From: Candidatus Methanoperedens sp. | GTDB lineage: Archaea > Halobacteriota > Methanosarcinia > Methanosarcinales > Methanoperedenaceae | Assembly (NCBI GenBank): GCA_027460535.1 | Contig: JAPZAR010000007.1 | Span: 120,001-152,000, forward strand | Length of the DNA stretch: 32,000 bases | Direction of reading: 5' to 3' | Shown: positions 11,579 through 27,887 of the stretch, in pieces | Layout: each line of letters starts with the position of its first letter | How positions within the stretch are numbered: position 1 is the first letter of the stretch | Notes under the pieces: model-generated | What the model saw: the letters and a program-made list of their open reading frames with translations, nothing else | What the model was told of the DNA's origin: nothing | The model's database searches: none | Position numbers and translations under genes: made by a program

Positions 11579-14170
11579 ATGCCCATTCGATTCGACAGAT
11601 TCACCATCAAAGCCCAGGAAGCATTCCAGGACGCACAGAATATAGCCCTTGAAAGAGGCCAGCAGCAGCTTGATGTTGAGCACCTTTTACTTGCGCTCAT
11701 CAACCAGAAAGAGGGCTTGACACTGCAACTTCTGCAAAAACTCGGTGCTAATGTTGCAGGGATAACCTCCCAGCTTGAAGACGAAATCGATAAGCTCCCG
11801 CGTGTGGAAGGCGCAGGCGCCGGTCAGATATACATGTCAACAAGATTGAATAATGTCGCAGAAGCCGCTTTTAATGAAATGAAGAACCTTCGCGATGAAT
11901 ACCTGAGCACTGAACATCTCCTGCTTGCAATTGCTAATGAGAAAAATGGTATTTCGGCGCGCATACTGAAAGAGAACGGAGTATCAAAGGACGCTCTCAT
12001 GAAAGCCCTGAAGGAAGTAAGAGGTTCATCCCGGGTTACTGACCAGAACCCTGAAGAGAAATACGAGGCGCTCAAAAAATATGGTCGCGACCTCACAGAC
12101 ATGGCTGCGCGCGGCAAGCTTGACCCTGTGATAGGGCGTGACAACGAGATACGCAGGGTGCTCCAGGTGCTCTCGAGAAGGACAAAGAACAACCCTGTGC
12201 TCATCGGGGAACCGGGGGTCGGGAAAACCGCAATAGCCGAAGGCTTGGCGCTCCGGATATTTGCTGGAGATGTTCCTGAGAATATCAAGGACAAAAGAGT
12301 GGTTGCCCTCGATTTGGGCGCGCTTGTGGCCGGCACCAAGTTCAGGGGTGAGTTCGAGGAGCGCCTGAAGGCCGTGATAAAAGAGGTTCAAGATTCGGAA
12401 GGCAAGGTCATTCTTTTCATAGATGAGCTACACACCGTAGTGGGCGCTGGAGCGGCGGAAGGTGCTATCGACGCCTCCAACTTACTCAAGCCCGCCCTTG
12501 CCAGAGGGGAACTGCGCTGCATTGGTGCAACCACGCTGAATGAATACCGAAAATACATCGAAAAGGATGCTGCGCTTGAGAGGCGGTTCCAGCCAATACT
12601 TGTGGGAGAACCCACTGTCGATGAAACGATATCCATCCTGCGTGGGCTCAAGGAAAAATACGAAGTGCATCACGGCGTGCGGATACAGGATGCCGCGCTC
12701 ATCGCAGCCGCAATCCTGTCCCAACGCTACATTACAGACAGGTTCCTGCCCGATAAGGCCATCGATCTTATCGATGAGGCTGCATCGAAGCTCCGGATAG
12801 AGATAGACAGCATGCCTGCAGAACTCGATGACATCGAGAGGAAGATAAGACAGCTTGAGATAGAGCGCCAGGCGGTGAAGAAGGAAAAAGACGAATATTC
12901 AAAGGAACGCCTCGAAAAGATAGATAAAGAGCTCTCAGACCTGAAAGAGAGAAGCAGCCAGATGAAAGCCCACTGGCAGCTTGAGAAAGATTCCATCCAG
13001 AAAATAAGGAAGATAAAGGAGGATATCGAGAGAACGCGCATGGATTCTGAAAAAGCGGAACTTGAGGGCAATCTTGAGAAGGCATCCGAGCTTCGCTATG
13101 GCGTTCTGATAAACCTGCAAAAACAGCTTGAGGAGGAAAACAGGAAACTCGTAGAGCTCCAGAAAGACCAGAAGATGCTCAAGGAAGAAGTGGATGAAGA
13201 GGATATCGCCGAGGTCGTCTCACGATGGACGCACATACCTGTGAGCAGGATGCTCGAGGGTGAGATGCAGAAACTGGTCCACATGGAGGAACGAATAAAG
13301 CAGCGGGTGGTGGGGCAGGATGAAGCCGTCATTGCTGTGGCTAACGCTGTCAGGAGAGGCCGCGCAGGCATATCGGACCCCAAGCGGCCAATAGGCTCGT
13401 TCATGTTCCTGGGCCCCACGGGCGTGGGCAAGACTGAACTTGGGCGCGCGCTTGCGGAGTTCCTGTTCGATGACGAGGCTGCCATGATCCGGCTGGATAT
13501 GAGCGAGTACATGGAAAAGCACACTGTTGCAAGGCTCATAGGCGCTCCACCTGGCTATGTGGGTTATGAAGAGGGCGGCCAGCTAACTGAGGCTGTGAGA
13601 CGGCGTCCGTACGCCGTCATTCTTTTCGATGAGATCGAGAAGGCGCATCCCGATGTGTTCAACCTGTTACTCCAGATACTGGACGACGGCAGGCTTACGG
13701 ACGGACACGGGCGCACGGTTGATTTCAAGAACACTGTTATCATCATGACATCCAACATCGGTAGCCAGTGGATATTCGAACTCGGGGACAAGGAGGATGA
13801 AATGAGGGAGAAAGTGATGGAGATGGTTCACCGGCAGTTCAAACCCGAGTTCCTGAATCGCCTGGATGAGATAATTATTTTCAATTCATTAAAGCTCCCG
13901 CAGATCACGAAGATCGTGGATATCCAGTTCAGGATATTAAGCAAGCGTCTTTCTGAAAGGAAGATCACCATTTCTCTTAGCGAAAAAGCCAGGGATTTCA
14001 TAGCAAAGGCAGGTTACGACCCGCTCTATGGGGCAAGACCTATAAAACGTACCATCCAGCACAGGATCCTTGATCCGCTTGCACTGAAGATACTCAATAA
14101 GGAGTTCGCGGAGGGGGATGCCGTGAAAGTGGATGTGAAAAGGGATGAGATCCTGTTTTCGAAAATCTAG
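11579..14170 (+). CDS. clpB: ClpB/Hsp104-type AAA+ disaggregase
   Basis: 863 aa. It has a Clp N-domain and two AAA+ modules with Walker A motifs [10 protein letters not shown] and [11 protein letters not shown] long coiled-coil middle domain lies between them. The C-terminal region reads [10 protein letters not shown]. Confidence 0.95.
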
Positions 14171-14228
14171 GGCTCCATTGTCGAATATTTGAATTGATTT
14201 TTCAAAAAGGGAAAGGATTGAGTATTGT

Positions 14229-14684
14229 TCACTCAATCTTCAGAGGTTTCATCTTCTTTATCTCGGTCTTGGGCATCTTTATTTCAAGAACCCCGTTCTT
14301 GTATGAAGCTTTGGAATTATCGGTATCCACAGGCGACGGAAGGGATATTGCACGGTAATAACTTCCGCTGCGCCTTTCCCTGTAAACATACCCCTTTTCC
14401 TCCTTTTTCTCTTCATGCTGTGTCTCTGCGGATATCTCAAGCCTGTCCTCGGTAAGGTTGATCTTTATGTCCTGTTTTTCAAGCCCCGGCATTTCGGCCG
14501 TTGCAACAATTTCCTTGTCGGTTTCCATGACATCGATGAAGGGCTGCCTGGATTCAGCCGGCACAATCTCGCCTTTTTCACCCGAAGGAAGCATGAGCCG
14601 CCTGCTGGGTCTTCCCCAGAAATCCTCAAACATCCGGTTCATCATTTCTTCGAATCTTCTGAAATCATCCCATTGATCTGCCAT
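14229..14684 (-). CDS. hsp20: Small heat shock protein (Hsp20/alpha-crystallin family)
   Basis: 151 aa. The alpha-crystallin core includes DVMETDKEIVATAEMPGLEKQDIKINL, FYRAISLP and ASYKNGVLEIKMPK. It is convergent with clpB. Confidence 0.9.
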   Translation of the reverse strand: MADQWDDFRRFEEMMNRMFEDFWGRPSRRLMLPSGEKGEIVPAESRQPFIDVMETDKEIVATAEMPGLEKQDIKINLTEDRLEISAETQHEEKKEEKGYVYRERRSGSYYRAISLPSPVDTDNSKASYKNGVLEIKMPKTEIKKMKPLKIE

Positions 14685-14780
14685 AACTAACTACCTCCAA
14701 TTTTAATTTTGTCGTATCTAATATTAAAACCTACCTCACAAAACCACAGATTTATTTTAACCGGAGCGTATCTGGTATCA

Positions 14781-15566
14781 ATGAAAAAGATCCTTTTGAC
14801 TAACGATGACGGAGTGTATTCCACAGGACTCAAAGCGGCTTACGAAAGTGTGCGCGATCTGGGAGAAGTTACGGTCGTGGCGCCATCCACGCAAAAAAGC
14901 GGCGTGGGAAGAGGCATATCAATCTTCGAACCATTACGCGTATCGCTTGCGAACGTAAATGGCTTCAGGGCGTATGCAGTGGCAGGGACTCCAACGGATT
15001 CGGTCATCCTGGGATTGTTCTCCATAATGAAACAGCATCCCGACCTTGTGCTTTCCGGCTTCAACGTAGGTGAGAACATAAGCACTGACACGGTTACTAC
15101 AAGCGGGACGATCGGCGCCGCACTTGAAGCCGCGAGCTACGGCATTCCAGCACTCGCTGCATCCATACAGGTTCTGGATGAAGGAGATAAGTTCGATGAC
15201 CACCGGGGTTATATTTATGATTTCGATGTGGGAATAAAGATAGTTAACAAGATCGCTGGAAATGTGATGGATAAAGGGCTTCCTGCCGGGGTTGACCTGC
15301 TGAATATCAATATACCCAGACACGCCACAATGGATACCGAGATCGAGATAACCAGGCTTGCGAGGAAGATATTCGTTACAGGAGTAGAGGAGCGATTTGA
15401 TCCAAGGGGCAGGCCATATTATTGGATAAACGGGGAATTGATCCGGGATGCCGAGGAGGGGACAGACGTCAAGGCTGTAATGAAAAAAGGGCATATTTCC
15501 ATAACTCCGCTGTCGCTTGATTCGACTGCAAGGGTTGATTTTAAAGAGATCGATGCGTTGTTGTAA
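14781..15566 (+). CDS. surE: 5'/3'-nucleotidase SurE
   Basis: The sequence MKKILLTNDDGVYSTGL... is the canonical SurE N-terminus, and SGFNVGENIS is the conserved loop. The ORF-track start at 14709 is a TTG that adds 24 non-conserved residues, so the ATG at 14781 is preferred. Confidence 0.9.
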   Translation: MKKILLTNDDGVYSTGLKAAYESVRDLGEVTVVAPSTQKSGVGRGISIFEPLRVSLANVNGFRAYAVAGTPTDSVILGLFSIMKQHPDLVLSGFNVGENISTDTVTTSGTIGAALEAASYGIPALAASIQVLDEGDKFDDHRGYIYDFDVGIKIVNKIAGNVMDKGLPAGVDLLNINIPRHATMDTEIEITRLARKIFVTGVEERFDPRGRPYYWINGELIRDAEEGTDVKAVMKKGHISITPLSLDSTARVDFKEIDALL

Positions 15567-15617
15567 GTGAGGGAATAATTTTAATATCACTAAAGGTATT
15601 ATGAACCTGGGAAAACA

Positions 15618-16076
15618 ATGATTTTAAATTTTCAGCTTACTCATGTTGAATCCAAAGTCTTTTCGAGCACTGAGGATATTCGAAAATATAAGAATATCAA
15701 TATAAATTACGATGTAAATCTCAAAAATCCTTCATTGGCGTCGGAGCATACCCCTTTCGGAGATAAATCCGTACTGAGGATTGAGTATACATTCGCCATC
15801 AATTACCTGAGCCCCAATATAGGGCATATAAGATTTGAGGGTTCATCTGATTATTACAGCGAAGAAGACCTCAAGGGTTTAAAAGAAAAATGGGATTCCG
15901 GGAATGCACCTGGGGATATCCAGAACGAGATAGCAAATACCATGGTGGCGAACCTTGCTCCCCTTGCATTAATGCTGTCAAAAGCCCTGGGACTTCCACC
16001 CTCAATGCCCGTTCCTGTCATCAACTTCCAGCAGGCTCAGAAGAAAAAAGAAGAGCCGACATATTATCACGGATAG
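15618..16076 (+). CDS. Hypothetical protein, possibly SecB-like chaperone fold
   Basis: 152 aa. The layout, and a C-terminal segment (IANTMVANLAPLALMLSKALGLPPSMPVPVINFQQ), parallel the LFPYARE...GFP.L.L.PVNF region of bacterial SecB. This is pattern resemblance only. Confidence 0.4.
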   Translation: MILNFQLTHVESKVFSSTEDIRKYKNININYDVNLKNPSLASEHTPFGDKSVLRIEYTFAINYLSPNIGHIRFEGSSDYYSEEDLKGLKEKWDSGNAPGDIQNEIANTMVANLAPLALMLSKALGLPPSMPVPVINFQQAQKKKEEPTYYHG

Positions 16077-16244
16077 CGTCTTTGAGACTGCTTTCATTGG
16101 TTCGATAATTTTCTTAAATTGCTGATTCCCATTGTGTAATACACATATCTTTATTTATAAAGTTGACCGGCAGCATCTTGCCTGTTGCTGAGTTAGATTT
16201 ATATACTATCACAACTATGGTCAGCTTCCCCAACGAGAGAAAAA

Positions 16245-17582
16245 ATGTCTGAATATACTTTGTTCTTAGGCTGCATCATCCCGGCGCGTTTTCCTTTCAT
16301 GGAAAAATCAACGAGGCTGGTTTTGTCAAAGCTTGGATGCGTTCTCCATGACCTTCCAGGTGCAACATGCTGCCCTACAAAAAGCATCATCAAACCCATA
16401 GGCGATCTTGCCTGGTATGTAACGGCGGCGAGGAACCTCGCTCTGGCGGAGAATACAGGGCATAATCTTCTGGTACCCTGCAACGGATGTTACAGTACAT
16501 TAAAATCGGTCGAGGTTGAACTTCGGATAGATCTGCATCTTCGGGAGCAGGTGAACAATATACTTTCATCAGCCGGTCTTGAATACAGGGGAACCATTGA
16601 AGTAAAGCACCTGGTCGAAGTGCTGCATGATGAGATCGGGATACCCAAGATAAAGCAGCAGATTATCAAGCCCTTTGACGGCATGAAAATAGCAGCCCAT
16701 CCGGGATGCCACATGCTGCGTCCAAGTTCATCAATATTTTTCGATGACCCAAATAAACCCAAAAAATTCGATGCACTGATAGAAGCTCTCGGGGCAAAAA
16801 GCATCGACTATGAGACAAAGATGCTCTGCTGCGGCGGCAACCTGAACACCGCGGATGAGCCTGATGAAGCCACGGCCCTGGCACGCATGAAGCTGCTTGA
16901 GGTCACTAAAAAGGCCGATGCAATATCGCTCACCTGCCCGTCATGTTTTATGCAATTCGACTCGCGCCAGTATCTCATGCAAAAAAGCGGTGAAAAGCTG
17001 AATCTTCCAATCATATATTATCCCGAACTACTGGGTCTCGCCATGGGTTTCACAACAGAAGAGCTTGGAATGGATATGCACAGGATAGATGCAGCGGAAT
17101 TCCTGTCGAAGTGGGATTCGAAGTACAATTATCTCAAGACTCTGCGAGAGGTTTTTGACCTGCCGGCTCTCAGGAAATGTTACGAGTGCGGAGCATGTGT
17201 TAATGACTGCCCCGTTGTTAAGATAAATCCTGAATTCAATCCCAATGAAATAATAGGGAGGCTGCTCTCAGGCGAGCTTGAGGCAGTAATAGAATCCCAC
17301 AATATATGGCGGTGTGTTGATTGTTATACCTGTTATGAACTCTGCCCGCAGAAAATGGGCATGAACAAGATATTTGATAAGCTGAAACATATTGCCCTTG
17401 AAAGAGGAAAAGAACCCAAGGGCTTTGCTGCCAGCATAGAGATGTTCAAGAAAGAAGGGAGATTGGGCGAACCGACATCCGTGCGAAAGAAACTGAAACT
17501 TCCCGAGCCCCCAAAGAGCGGGGGAGAGGAATTAAAAAAATTATTGCTAATAATACAACAAGGAGAAGAAAATGAAGCATGA
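16245..17582 (+). CDS. Heterodisulfide-reductase-like fusion: two CCG (HdrB-type) domains followed by a 2x[4Fe-4S] (HdrC-type) domain
   Basis: Counted in the translation: C-x31-CC-x35-CxxC (LGC...ATCC...PCNGC) and C-x39-CC-x34-CxxC (PGC...MLCCGG...CPSC). Two CxxCxxCxxxCP motifs follow (CYECGACVNDCP, CVDCYTCYELCP). The 3' end overlaps the next gene by 11 nt. Confidence 0.8.
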   Translation: MSEYTLFLGCIIPARFPFMEKSTRLVLSKLGCVLHDLPGATCCPTKSIIKPIGDLAWYVTAARNLALAENTGHNLLVPCNGCYSTLKSVEVELRIDLHLREQVNNILSSAGLEYRGTIEVKHLVEVLHDEIGIPKIKQQIIKPFDGMKIAAHPGCHMLRPSSSIFFDDPNKPKKFDALIEALGAKSIDYETKMLCCGGNLNTADEPDEATALARMKLLEVTKKADAISLTCPSCFMQFDSRQYLMQKSGEKLNLPIIYYPELLGLAMGFTTEELGMDMHRIDAAEFLSKWDSKYNYLKTLREVFDLPALRKCYECGACVNDCPVVKINPEFNPNEIIGRLLSGELEAVIESHNIWRCVDCYTCYELCPQKMGMNKIFDKLKHIALERGKEPKGFAASIEMFKKEGRLGEPTSVRKKLKLPEPPKSGGEELKKLLLIIQQGEENEA

Positions 17583-18693
17583 TGTGATGAATCCGGAGAT
17601 AACCAATCCATCTGGACGGGTTCATCAAAGAATACCATCCGGATGTGCGATTTCCGGAATGATGAGTGAGCAGGGCAGACGCATTGACGGCAGGGTGGTA
17701 ATCAGATCCATCGCCTGCATGCATGACCGCTCAAACGGGCTTGGAGGAGGCTTTGCTGCCTATGGTATTTATCCGAAACGAAAAGACATGTATGCTTTTC
17801 ACATGATGTATGATAATATTGAAGCAAAAGAGGCCACGGAAGAGTTCTTCAAGGATGTTTTCAATGTGGACAAGGATGAAGCCATACCCACACAAAGGGA
17901 GAACGGAGTATCGAATCCTCCCATGCTCTGGAGATATTTCCTTGAAGTCCCTGAAAATAAACTCGAATTTCTCTCCGAGCGGGATTATGTCATGAAAACC
18001 GTGATGAAAATTAATTCAGATGTCGAGGGAGCTTTTGTTGCCTCAAGCGGCAAGAACATGGGCGCATTCAAAGGCGTCGGGTACCCAGAAGACATAGGCA
18101 GGTTCTATAAATTAGAGGATTACAGCGCATACATCTGGACAGCACACGGAAGATTCCCCACGAACACACCGGGCTGGTGGGGCGGCGCCCATCCATTTAC
18201 ACTTCTTGACTGGTCCGTGGTGCACAACGGCGAGATATCTTCGTATGGAATAAACAAGCGGTACCTTGAAATGTTCGGGTACAAACTTGAACTCCGGACG
18301 GATACTGAGGTTATTGCATATTTGTTTGATCTTCTCGTCAGAAGGCATAAGCTCCAGCCATCCTGGGCCGTAATGGCACTTGCCTCTCCTTTCTGGAAGG
18401 ATATAGACAGAATGGAACCTGAAAAAAAGAAAATAGCCACCCTGATAAGGCAGGTGTATGGAAGTACGCTTCTAAATGGCCCGTTCAGCATTATCATAGG
18501 GCACAACAGGGGAATGATAGGTTTGAACGACAGGATAAAGCTCCGTCCCATGACAGCAGCCCGCAAGGATGATATGCTGTACATGGCATCCGAAGAATCG
18601 GCAATCAGGGAGATATCGCCGGACCTTGATGAAGTGTGGAGCCCGAAAGCAGGGACTGCCGTAGTGGGTAACCTGAATGAAGAGGTGGAATAA
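17572..18693 (+). CDS. Class II (Ntn) glutamine amidotransferase, archaeal split glutamate synthase domain-1 protein
   Basis: 373 aa. It has a CAISGMM nucleophile-type motif after a 24-residue leader, an HGRFPTNT motif and an HNGEISSYG motif, all typical of GltB-type/PurF-type amidotransferase domains. It is coupled to both neighbouring genes by overlaps. Confidence 0.8.
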   Translation: MKHDVMNPEITNPSGRVHQRIPSGCAISGMMSEQGRRIDGRVVIRSIACMHDRSNGLGGGFAAYGIYPKRKDMYAFHMMYDNIEAKEATEEFFKDVFNVDKDEAIPTQRENGVSNPPMLWRYFLEVPENKLEFLSERDYVMKTVMKINSDVEGAFVASSGKNMGAFKGVGYPEDIGRFYKLEDYSAYIWTAHGRFPTNTPGWWGGAHPFTLLDWSVVHNGEISSYGINKRYLEMFGYKLELRTDTEVIAYLFDLLVRRHKLQPSWAVMALASPFWKDIDRMEPEKKKIATLIRQVYGSTLLNGPFSIIIGHNRGMIGLNDRIKLRPMTAARKDDMLYMASEESAIREISPDLDEVWSPKAGTAVVGNLNEEVE

Positions 18694-20201
18694 TGGAATC
18701 ACAACTTCCTGCGGAATTCATAGTGAACGTTGACCATGAAAGGTGCAGGCGATGCAAGCGCTGCGTGATCAATTGCAGCTTCGGTGCTATCGAATTCAAG
18801 GATAAGGTCACACCTAACCACAGGCAGTGCGTTGCATGCCACAGGTGCGCCACGTTCTGCCCTGAGAGCGCGATCACCATCACAGAGAACCCGCTTGATT
18901 ACAAGGACGGGTATAACTGGACACCAGAGATCAGGAAGAATATCCTGAAACAGGCCGAAAGCGGCGGCATCATTCTTACAGGCATGGGAAACCCGAAGCC
19001 ATATCCCATATACTGGGACCACATGCTGATAGATGCATGCCAGGTGACAAATCCCTCCATCGATCCCCTGCGGGAGCCAATGGAGCTTCGGACATACCTG
19101 GGCGCAAAACCCGAGGCTATCGAATTTGAGGGAGAGAATGACAATATCAGCCTGAAAACAGAGCTTGCGCCCCAGGTGAAGCTGGATATACCCATAGTGT
19201 TCGCTGCAATGTCCTATGGCGCGATAAGCCTGAATGCACACAAAGCCCTGGCAATGGCAGCGAAGCGCATGGGAACCCTGATGAATACGGGCGAAGGCGG
19301 TCTGCATGAGGACCTTGCATCCTATACGGACAGGATCATTGTGCAGGTCGCATCGGGAAGGTTCGGAGTGACAAGCAAGTACCTGAACAACAGCGCTGTG
19401 GTAGAGATCAAGATAGGGCAGGGCGCAAAGCCGGGTATTGGCGGACACCTGCCAGGTGAAAAAGTAGGCGAGGATATCTCAAAGACGCGCATGATACCCG
19501 TGGGCACGGATGCATTATCACCCGCCCCCCATCACGATATATATTCTATCGAAGACCTATCGCAGCTCATATATGCGATAAAAGAAGCAACGGATTACAG
19601 GAAACCTGTATCTGTCAAGATAGCGGCGGTGCATAACGTCGCAGCCATCGCAAGCGGGATCGTTCGCGCCGGCGCGGATATAGTGATGATAGATGGGTTC
19701 CGCGGAGGAACAGGAGCAGCGCCCATGATAATCAGGGACCATGTTGGGATTCCCATTGAACTCGCACTTGCCGCCGTGGATGACCGGCTCAGGCAGGAAG
19801 GGATAAGGAACAGGGCATCCATACTCGTAGGCGGAAGTATCAGGCAGAGCGCCGATGTCGTAAAAGCCATAGCGCTGGGCGCAGACGCCTGCGTTATAGG
19901 AACGGCCTCTCTCATAGCCATGGGCTGCCGCGTATGCCAGAAGTGCTACACCGGCAATTGCGCATGGGGAATAGCAACCCAGAAACCTGAGCTTGTGCGC
20001 CGCCTGAATCCTGAACTTTCGGCTGACAGGCTTTGCAATCTTCTTACCGCATGGGGTCATGAGATACAGGAAGTGCTGGGCTCACTTGGCATTAATGCCA
20101 TCGAATCGCTGCGGGGAAGCAGGGAGCGGCTGCGTGGCGTGGGTCTTAACCAGGAGACGCTGGACATACTCGGGATCAAGCATGCCGGGATAGGACAGTG
20201 A
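18693..20201 (+). CDS. gltB: Archaeal-type glutamate synthase FMN/Fe-S subunit with an N-terminal 2x[4Fe-4S] ferredoxin domain
   Basis: 502 aa. It has CRRCKRCVINC and CVACHRCATFCP ferredoxin motifs, then a GltS FMN-domain sequence (EIKIGQGAKPGIGGHLPG, SPAPHHDIYSIEDL, IDGFRGGTGAAP). The start overlaps the previous stop by 1 nt (TAATG). Confidence 0.85.
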   Translation: MESQLPAEFIVNVDHERCRRCKRCVINCSFGAIEFKDKVTPNHRQCVACHRCATFCPESAITITENPLDYKDGYNWTPEIRKNILKQAESGGIILTGMGNPKPYPIYWDHMLIDACQVTNPSIDPLREPMELRTYLGAKPEAIEFEGENDNISLKTELAPQVKLDIPIVFAAMSYGAISLNAHKALAMAAKRMGTLMNTGEGGLHEDLASYTDRIIVQVASGRFGVTSKYLNNSAVVEIKIGQGAKPGIGGHLPGEKVGEDISKTRMIPVGTDALSPAPHHDIYSIEDLSQLIYAIKEATDYRKPVSVKIAAVHNVAAIASGIVRAGADIVMIDGFRGGTGAAPMIIRDHVGIPIELALAAVDDRLRQEGIRNRASILVGGSIRQSADVVKAIALGADACVIGTASLIAMGCRVCQKCYTGNCAWGIATQKPELVRRLNPELSADRLCNLLTAWGHEIQEVLGSLGINAIESLRGSRERLRGVGLNQETLDILGIKHAGIGQ

Positions 20202-20228
20202 TTTGTATGAAGAATTTTAATGAGAAGG

Positions 20229-20303
20229 AACCGCAGATAAACGCAGATGAACGCAGATTTGTTCTTGTATCCACCCTTATCCAAGTTCAACCGCGGTTAC
20301 TTT
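20229..20303 (-). repeat. Copy C of the intergenic repeat family, inverted relative to copies A and B
   Basis: It contains AACCGCGGTT (20289-20298) and tandem GATRAACGCAGAT units (20235-20259). The reverse complement aligns with the start of copy B (AACCGCGGTTGA...GGATA...ATCTGCG...). Confidence 0.6.
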
Positions 20304-20355
20304 TTGATGATTTGATTAATGCTGAAACATGTGGCATTGAGGGACGTGACGCTTT

Positions 20356-21084
20356 ATGAGAATCGATGCAAAAGGCATGCATTACAGGCCGTTAAACAAA
20401 ATTATCCGCGATGCGGTTGCAGCAGGCGAAAAGGAGTTCGAGCTAGATAACGTGGGCGGGCAGAGGTATATCGGGGATGGATTGAACGAAACCGTTAGGA
20501 TCACCATCAACGGCACACCGGGGAACGACCTGGGTGCTTTCATGAACGGTCCGAAGATCATAGTCAACGCGAACGCCCAGGACGGCATCGCGAACACCAT
20601 GAATGCCGGCGAGATAATCGTACATGGCAATGTGGGCGATATCATAGGTTACGGCATGCGCGGCGGGAAGCTGTACATCAAAGGAGATGCAGGATACCGC
20701 GTCGGGATACACATGAAGGAGTATAAGAAACAGGTGCCGGTAATCGTGACAGGCGGTACAGCAGGTGACTTTTTCGGGGAATATATGGCAGGCGGGATAT
20801 TGATCCTTCTTGGCCTGAACGGGAAGGATCCGATCGCGGGTGATTATGTGGGAACGGGAATGCACGGCGGAGTGATATATATCCGTGGAAAGGTTGACCC
20901 GTATCACCTTGGAAAAGAAGTGAACTGCCTTGAATTGAATGAAGAGGATTTGAAGCTCATTGGTACTTTCCTTAAGGAGTACTGCGAGTATTTCGGGTTC
21001 GATTTCAATGAAGTGATGGGCGGGAAGTTCACGAAGCTTGTCCCGTTATCCGTTCGGCCGTATGGGAATTTGTATGTGTATTAA
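20356..21084 (+). CDS. GXGXG-repeat beta-helix protein, glutamate synthase domain-3 type (also related to FwdC)
   Basis: 242 aa with repeated Gly-rich turns (GNDLGAFMNG, GDIIGYGMRGG, GDAGYRVG, GTAGDFFGEYMAGG, GTGMHGG), as in the C-terminal domain of GltB. Confidence 0.8.
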   Translation: MRIDAKGMHYRPLNKIIRDAVAAGEKEFELDNVGGQRYIGDGLNETVRITINGTPGNDLGAFMNGPKIIVNANAQDGIANTMNAGEIIVHGNVGDIIGYGMRGGKLYIKGDAGYRVGIHMKEYKKQVPVIVTGGTAGDFFGEYMAGGILILLGLNGKDPIAGDYVGTGMHGGVIYIRGKVDPYHLGKEVNCLELNEEDLKLIGTFLKEYCEYFGFDFNEVMGGKFTKLVPLSVRPYGNLYVY

Positions 21085-27774: not shown

Positions 27775-27887
27775 TAAAAAAACCGCGGTTGACGTGGATA
27801 CGCGCGGATCTGTGGAAATCCGTCCTATCAGTGTCATCCGTGTTCCGCACTGTGGCTGTGCTTTGCGCTCTTTGCGTCCTTTGCGGT
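27775..27887 (+). repeat. Copy B of the intergenic repeat (short form, same orientation as copy A)
   Basis: It runs AAAAAAACCGCGGTTGA, then the core GCGCGGATCTGTGGAAATCCGTCCTATCAGTGTCATCCGTGTTCCGC, then the CTTTGCG 9-mer triplet (27861-27887). See copy A for the alignment. Confidence 0.75.

Follow-up and report, generated by a model that had tools for sequence, protein, structure and literature searches.

Split glutamate synthases of the archaeal type are encoded by separate genes for a class-II glutamine amidotransferase, a ferredoxin-domain flavin mononucleotide (FMN) subunit and a GXGXG subunit, and their physiological reductant has never been established. The closest described relatives with an additional subunit carry FrhB-like 'subunit 4' proteins, which underlie the F420-dependent glutamate synthases of the literature, unproven to date, namely FGltS(I), FGltS(II) and the FrhB10 group of anaerobic methanotrophic (ANME) archaea (PMC3448663, PMC3087415, PMC9012536), and F420-dependent glutamate synthase was still called 'putative' in 2026 (PMC13381448). 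Here we describe an operon of Candidatus Methanoperedens sp. in which the three glutamate synthase (GOGAT) genes are preceded by a different protein, a 445-aa fusion of HdrB-like and HdrC-like parts. The operon occupies positions 16245–21084 of a 32,000-nucleotide stretch of DNA (the window; bases 120001–152000 of contig C7) from a 99.8% complete genome of 2.9 Mb, and consists of four open reading frames (ORFs), all on the + strand. We think it reasonably probable that the fusion is a dedicated fourth subunit of the split glutamate synthase, one that oxidizes a dithiol and serves as the entry point for electrons, with coenzyme M (CoM-SH) plus coenzyme B (CoB-SH) as the most plausible donor in this organism. 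A CCG-type fourth subunit thereby provides a concrete hypothesis for the donor, and it would probably feed electrons into nitrogen assimilation by an undescribed, thiol-driven way. A literature search, with subscription journals outside its coverage, returned no paper in which an HdrB/HdrC-like or CCG protein is connected with glutamate synthase. What is new relative to the literature is an HdrBC-type protein, probably a dedicated subunit, encoded with glutamate synthase, a pairing that we find in both archaea and bacteria.

The fusion gene (16245–17582, +), product of the operon's first ORF and our proposed electron-input subunit, is matched in Pfam by two CCG stretches and a 4Fe-4S dicluster domain. 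Its first CCG motif (Cys10, 42, 43, 79 and 82; 16272–16490, +) has the form C-x31-CC-x35-CxxC and is in register with HdrB in alignments to PDB structures, and the second (Cys155, 195, 196, 231 and 234; 16707–16946, +) reads C-x39-CC-x34-CxxC with all five cysteines invariant. The HdrC-like ferredoxin domain that follows (17178–17345, +) holds two CxxCxxCxxxCP motifs at residues 312–323 and 357–368 (Cys312–322 and Cys357–367), the eight cysteines of which are also invariant. These positions agree exactly with the first-pass annotation of this DNA, which had reported two CCG motifs with these spacings followed by two CxxCxxCxxxCP clusters. Over residues 3–291 the protein aligns end to end to HdrB in five solved chains (E 1e-60 to 1e-69), about residues 306–404 match the HdrC chains 5odc_C and 9sfi_E (E about 1e-16), and identity to bona fide HdrB is 40–43%. 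The ten CCG and eight ferredoxin cysteines are invariant in alignments of 39 and of 48 family members, across which the sole non-ligand cysteine varies. Judging by this cysteine conservation and the alignment to solved HdrB and HdrC, the fusion protein looks functional. Both parts nevertheless fall below the equivalog cut-offs of the canonical families: the HdrB profile TIGR03288 gives 293 bits over residues 3–289 (cut-off 345) and the HdrC profile TIGR03290 gives 62.6 bits over residues 310–423 (cut-off 160), with both CxxCxxCxxxCP motifs present and invariant. In a quick tree, whose deep nodes lack resolution, the fusions stand apart from canonical HdrB, including the genome's own three copies, and the window protein forms a clade (SH-aLRT 99) with fusions of related methane- and alkane-oxidizer lineages, beside orthologs from Bacillota. 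Its closest homologs carry the source names Methanoperedens, ANME-2 and Argoarchaeum.

Domain order and operon partners distinguish this protein from the known enzymes built from the same parts. Soluble HdrABC (PDB 5ODC, 7BKB, 8RVU, 9SFI) resembles it in the HdrB and HdrC alignments, with cluster cysteines in register, and in predicted cofactors, two non-cubane and two cubane [4Fe-4S] clusters. However, HdrB is a separate polypeptide encoded with hdrC (and hdrA), whereas the fusion is a single B-then-C polypeptide with no hdrA nearby in the source genome and glutamate synthase genes as operon partners, and we propose that it oxidizes thiols where HdrABC reduces a disulfide. The genome's canonical hdrC and hdrB are separate genes, present as three pairs on other contigs, and no hdr gene other than the fusion lies within the window. 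HdrD, GlpC, GlcF and LdhH combine the same two building blocks in one chain but have the ferredoxin domain first and work with HdrE, GlpAB, GlcDE and lactate utilization proteins, respectively. The profiles of TfrB, GlpC, GlcF and LdhH likewise place the ferredoxin part N-terminal and the CCG part C-terminal, so that the HdrB-then-HdrC order is indeed reversed relative to the TfrB type, as had been proposed from the sequence, and the TfrB profile NF004898 scores 67 bits on the fusion against a cut-off of 385. TfrB provides a functional analogy to the proposed role. In TfrAB of Methanothermobacter, a CCG iron-sulfur subunit takes electrons from CoM-SH plus CoB-SH and delivers them to a flavoenzyme for the reduction of an organic acceptor, fumarate; the differences are that TfrB has its iron-sulfur domain first and its CCG part last, and that the acceptor enzyme is unrelated. 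The 445-aa protein is a member of an unnamed family associated with glutamate synthase, defined by a CCG-CCG-2x[4Fe-4S] architecture, a length of about 440 aa and a position directly before or within a split GOGAT operon.

The remaining three genes encode a split glutamate synthase of the archaeal type, which according to a genome-wide profile search is the genome's only full glutamate synthase. The 373-aa class-II glutamine amidotransferase subunit (17572–18693, +; Pfam GATase_2) has its likely catalytic cysteine at residue 25, within PSGCAISG. The 502-aa ferredoxin-FMN subunit (18693–20201, +) couples an N-terminal Fer4 region to the sole full-scoring Glu_synthase domain in the genome (486 bits), and its twelve invariant cysteines make up two 4Fe-4S motifs at residues 18–56 and a Cx2Cx2Cx4C motif at 412–423. 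The 242-aa GXGXG (beta-helix) subunit (20356–21084, +) matches Pfam GXGXG with 121 bits. The NAD(P)H-dependent GltB-GltD and the ferredoxin-dependent glutamate synthases share this amidotransferase, FMN and GXGXG chemistry; the system here differs in being made of three polypeptides, in the absence of GltD, and in having its own two-cluster ferredoxin domain and a four-cysteine FMN-proximal cluster. The tight packing of the genes noticed at first pass is confirmed by the coordinates: the amidotransferase ATG at 17572, preceded by AGGAG at 17561–17565, lies upstream of the fusion's TGA stop (17580–17582) and gives an overlap of 11 nt, and the amidotransferase and ferredoxin-FMN genes share 1 nt, at 18693. 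Because the amidotransferase of most other Methanoperedens genomes aligns only from about residue 20 and starts a few bases past the fusion stop, it is the tight spacing, and not the first overlap, that is conserved.

The prediction that the Hdr-like gene would be conserved next to glutamate synthase genes held at every informative locus, in two domains of life and down to 33% identity. In a class sample of 301 genomes, the full-length fusion is present in 24 of the 28 other Methanoperedens genomes and, patchily, in four other families, and the large cultured genera with closed genomes have separate HdrB only. The order fusion, amidotransferase, ferredoxin-FMN and GXGXG subunits on one strand is found in the window, in each of the 23 other Methanoperedens loci with sufficient sequence, in 13 complete loci from four further families (57–60% identity) and in Ca. 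Argoarchaeum. An exhaustive search of 1.8 billion representatives yielded some 25–30 further full-length B-then-C clusters at 33–46% identity. Wherever these distant fusions have visible neighbors, an amidotransferase gene comes directly after them, with the remaining two genes of the trio wherever the contig is long enough, as seen in loci at 46, 44, 41, 38 and 33% identity and in a genome at 37% from a phylum sample of 401 genomes; the fusions P0126 and P0145, on contigs too short for neighbors, stand outside this tally. One locus nested among the fusions has a split form, in which a 302-aa hdrB-like gene overlaps a 140-aa hdrC-like gene and the glutamate synthase genes follow, indicating that the B-then-C order is a family trait rather than a chance product of fusion. 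The fusion is also absent from the three Methanoperedens genomes that lack the amidotransferase gene. The fusion occurs in no cultured isolate of the sampled class, which may explain how it has escaped biochemistry so far.

Relatives without the fusion reveal what else can occupy its place. In two of them the amidotransferase gene begins inside an FrhB/FdhB-like gene, in a fusion-less sister genus of Methanoperedens such a gene is located one gene further upstream, and others have only glnA in that position. The fusion therefore alternates, within a single family, with a known type of electron-input subunit. The FGltS systems and the ANME FrhB10 group share with the Methanoperedens operon the split core and an operon-encoded extra redox subunit, which is an FrhB-like F420/FAD protein there and a flavin-free CCG-ferredoxin protein here, so that a different donor is expected (PMC3448663, PMC3087415, PMC9012536). 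The FrhB/FdhB-like subunit encoded with the GOGAT genes of those systems is missing from our operon: neither FrhB-like nor GltD-like neighbors are found in the window, and the genome's three FrhB-like genes are on other contigs. In the fusion-less relative G011 (L056:2220-3443), the GXGXG gene is separated from hdrC-hdrB by an IscB RNA-guided endonuclease gene (346 bits) and by npdG, a gene for NADPH:F420 reductase.

A second version of the operon is found in Bacillota, where three species genomes encode fusion orthologs at 51–54% identity, along with glutamate synthase subunits 63–75% identical to their archaeal counterparts. A single scan of named genomes with the bacterial ortholog gave three loci. 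In these genomes the fusion closes the operon, in the order amidotransferase, FMN subunit, GXGXG subunit, Lpd-like (a dihydrolipoamide-dehydrogenase-like flavoprotein), LplA (lipoate-protein ligase), LipA (lipoyl synthase), a 77-aa lipoyl domain bearing a TSKA lysine motif, and the fusion. One of the three loci is without LplA and without a detectable carrier, and in a fourth, truncated locus LipA is fused to a lipoyl domain directly upstream of the HdrB-HdrC fusion. By its gene content, the Bacillota operon appears to encode a complete dithiol-regenerating system, which would constitute a new route from NAD(P)H to GOGAT with a lipoyl carrier instead of GltD. Use of a lipoyl carrier by Hdr-like proteins has a precedent in the sHdr-LbpA system (PMC11094781). 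This sulfur oxidation pathway has in common with the Bacillota operon Hdr-like CCG proteins, a lipoylated carrier and lipoate-assembly genes (PMC11094781, PMC10332631). It differs in that sHdr comprises separate B and C proteins plus HdrA, with the GcvH-like LbpA as carrier, whereas in the Bacillota operons the carrier is a 77-aa E2-type lipoyl domain accompanied by an E3-like reductase, and the archaeal operons encode no carrier.

What is established for this family is its gene architecture, the conservation of its ligands, the synteny and the alternation of modules. The model that we draw from them, which adds complex formation, a direction for the electrons and a donor, is that of an HdrB run in reverse. 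The two CCG domains, each with a predicted non-cubane [4Fe-4S] cluster, would oxidize a dithiol, and the electrons would pass through the fusion's two C-terminal cubane clusters, the two ferredoxin-domain clusters of the FMN subunit and its Cx2Cx2Cx4C cluster to FMN, which once reduced would convert 2-iminoglutarate to glutamate. The cluster sets of the two proteins form, on paper, an unbroken chain from the CCG sites to the flavin. In Bacillota the dithiol would probably be the small lipoyl-carrier protein, kept reduced by the operon-encoded dihydrolipoamide-dehydrogenase-like enzyme. In ANME-2-type archaea, and most plausibly also in this Methanoperedens, it would be CoM-SH plus CoB-SH, the heterodisulfide product being re-reduced by Hdr or consumed by Mcr in methane activation. 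The heterodisulfide couple lies near -140 mV and the 2-oxoglutarate plus ammonium/glutamate couple is similar (approximate values), and glutamine hydrolysis contributes roughly 14 kJ/mol. From such approximate textbook values, the thiol-driven reaction would be mildly exergonic, about -10 to -15 kJ/mol. If CoM-SH plus CoB-SH is the true donor, anaerobic methanotrophs would connect their nitrogen assimilation directly to the thiol/heterodisulfide pool that powers methane activation, and HdrB-type chemistry would gain a biosynthetic role, as in thiol:fumarate reductase. A complex prediction for the fusion and the ferredoxin-FMN subunit, made with custom alignments, scored 0.22 against a mark of 0.32 and is evidence neither way.

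Gene neighborhoods in other archaea bear on the donor. In 10 of the 14 archaeal loci outside Methanoperedens, bona fide hdrC and hdrB genes (217 bits for a cut-off of 160 and 463 bits for a cut-off of 345, respectively) lie directly against the operon in the same orientation, on its downstream side in seven and its upstream side in three, and an HdrA2-like gene was detected beside hdrC-hdrB in eight of the ten. The retention of this adjacency through rearrangement suggests linkage by function. By analogy, each operon type may pair a dithiol-oxidase-like module with a disulfide reductase, E3-like in Bacillota and HdrABC in ANME-2-type archaea. The first-pass annotation had suggested that electrons could enter via a thiol/disulfide or ferredoxin-linked route: the thiol/disulfide route gains indirect support from the lipoyl-carrier and Lpd-like genes of Bacillota and from the ANME-2-type hdrCBA genes, while the identity of the donor is something that we infer. 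McrA is encoded in the source genome and in one ANME-2-type genome. The phylum sample contains one fusion-bearing genome outside the class; its McrA-like genes number seven and mostly score weakly, a pattern to be expected for a multi-Acr alkane oxidizer. McrA or Acr-like genes were present in all three fusion-bearing genomes tested from the two samples.

A lipoyl-protein donor, as in Bacillota, was rejected as a general donor in archaea on the distribution of LipA. No lipoyl synthase above cut-off was found in four of five fusion-bearing ANME-2-type genomes (92–99% complete), and the same four have no lipoyl-domain proteins except for frames of ~580 aa that probably represent biotin enzymes. 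Of the 36 other Methanoperedens genomes, 21 yielded a lipoyl synthase, and none was found in ten that have the fusion; the presence of this enzyme in 14 of 24 fusion-bearing Methanoperedens relatives and in one of four fusion-less ones indicates that it does not track the fusion. The lipoyl donor is therefore not general in these archaea. The rejection is not strict for the source genome, whose only lipoyl domain belongs to a classical 2-oxoacid dehydrogenase operon (E1 alpha, E1 beta, E2, E3 and LipA) on another contig. This operon with its lipoyl synthase is at about 45.4–51.0 kb of contig C12 (G000; locus L081:7460-13022), a trait that is patchy in the genus, to judge by lipoyl synthase, and unusual for a methane-metabolizing archaeon. 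Adjoining the E3 gene is a 301-aa ORF (L081:6560-7465) with a borderline GXGXG match (32.3 bits, cut-off 32.5), and ~11 kb from it a weak partial Glu_synthase match lies in a 407-aa frame (G000:C12:56445-56756).

Several observations weigh against a dithiol-fed subunit with CoM-SH plus CoB-SH as its donor. The hdrCBA adjacency is missing in Methanoperedens itself, and elsewhere it could be partly inherited regional synteny (in genus g6, hdrB is 8–30 kb from the GOGAT genes). The three-gene core is present in 239 of the 301 genomes of the class, mostly without the fusion, and since it also occurs without the fusion in a 93% complete Methanoperedens genome (G256) and in sister genera, the core presumably works on its own. 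Members of the family are found in a sigma-54 bacterium and in a bacterium with SpoIIE and GroEL neighbors, in both cases with no dithiol-regenerating gene nearby; these bacteria presumably have neither CoM nor CoB, and CoM-SH/CoB-SH is therefore not the donor of the whole family. Moreover, electrons from a donor near -140 mV would have to cross clusters and a flavin that are probably of lower potential, and the scores of the HdrB and HdrC parts below equivalog cut-offs leave room for an altered substrate specificity. Thioredoxin or another protein dithiol is a possible donor. In one distant lineage, genes for a glutaredoxin and for a protein like the catalytic subunit of ferredoxin:thioredoxin reductase (L092:3447-4039) lie 3 kb upstream of the fusion-GOGAT operon, which may point to a protein dithiol as the donor there. 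More tentatively, these enzymes could form an unrecognized class of glutamate synthase fed by a dithiol/disulfide couple. The couple would be CoM-SH plus CoB-SH in methane- and alkane-oxidizing archaea, so that ammonium assimilation regenerates heterodisulfide for Mcr, and the enzyme would have been re-plumbed after transfer to Bacillota onto an NAD(P)H-reduced lipoyl carrier. The ANME-2-type hdrCBA string would then be a heterodisulfide shuttle between a bifurcating Hdr and GOGAT.

Other explanations of the fusion dispense with a thiol donor. The fusion could be an adaptor that docks on HdrA via its HdrC-like domain, with glutamate synthesis replacing heterodisulfide as the high-potential acceptor of flavin-based electron bifurcation and F420H2 or another electron donor of HdrA as the source. 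HdrC links HdrA to HdrB in solved HdrABC complexes, and an HdrA2-like gene adjoins the operon in ANME-2-type loci, but that hdrA has its own complete hdrC and hdrB, none is nearby in Methanoperedens, Bacillota, G531 or the distant members, and the strict conservation of ten CCG cysteines would be left unexplained; we consider such docking unlikely. It seems quite unlikely to us that ferredoxin is the donor, entering via the ferredoxin-type clusters, and that the CCG clusters sense the thiol/disulfide state to gate or stabilize the enzyme. A dedicated disulfide reductase and dithiol carrier, as found in the Bacillota operons, exceed what a sensor needs, and the fusion alternates with a catalytic F420H2-oxidizing subunit and not with a regulator, even though the FMN subunit has its own ferredoxin domain and many relatives have the three-gene core without the fusion.

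The fusion also matches, below threshold, two CCG-containing families, the membrane anchor SdhE and GlpC, as would suit a quinone or membrane link that tethers the enzyme and exchanges electrons with menaquinol or methanophenazine. These scores are far under the family cut-offs (160 versus 500 bits and 37 versus 278 bits), soluble HdrB proteins are by far the nearest relatives of the fusion, and menaquinol is probably too positive to drive the reaction, all of which makes such a link very improbable. Finally, we find it hardly credible that the fusion serves energy metabolism as an ordinary heterodisulfide reductase and only happens to be encoded beside the glutamate synthase genes. Such an enzyme might display the observed 40–43% identity to bona fide HdrB. 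Against it stand the adjacency, which persists in both domains to identities as low as 33% and often involves overlapping genes, the presence of three canonical hdrC-hdrB pairs at other sites in the genome, and the failure of the fusion to reach the equivalog cut-offs of HdrB and HdrC, together with its separation from canonical HdrB in the tree.

About 85 nt before the fusion ATG, corresponding to the promoter and 5' leader of the operon (16160–16244, +), are conserved in 11 Methanoperedens loci, and sequence further upstream is unrelated between genomes. The conserved region has a TATA-like box, TTTAAATAC/TTTATATAC, ~45 nt before the ATG and a purine-rich stretch next to it, and this conservation, together with the divergence further upstream, indicates that the fusion heads the operon. 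Also within the conserved region are an invariant leader (GCTTCCCCAACGAGAG...) and, upstream, a CACCAGT-N5-TTGCC element, a possible regulator site; inspection of the promoter region by eye revealed no NrpR-type GGAA-N6-TTCC operator. Near distant operons, an NrpR-like gene is divergent from the P0125 operon and Lrp/AsnC-type genes are found at L093:6526-6975 and L097:2726-3214, which fits control by nitrogen or amino acids. The operon is flanked upstream by clpB, hsp20 and surE and downstream by a type I restriction locus. The upstream genes (11579–16076), with hsp20 on the opposite strand, are accompanied by a 152-aa ORF without a Pfam match, and this clpB-hsp20-surE context is not kept in other Methanoperedens genomes. 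Within the operon, the GXGXG gene is preceded by a 154-nt spacer (20202–20355) with short repeats, namely a tandem 10-mer at 20229–20248 and, at 20289, the palindrome AACCGCGGTT. A second copy of this palindrome lies in the restriction locus, at 27781 (0.03 occurrences expected by chance). In sister genera the spacer at the same position is only ~8 nt, and we therefore conclude that a small repeat element was inserted here between co-functional genes.

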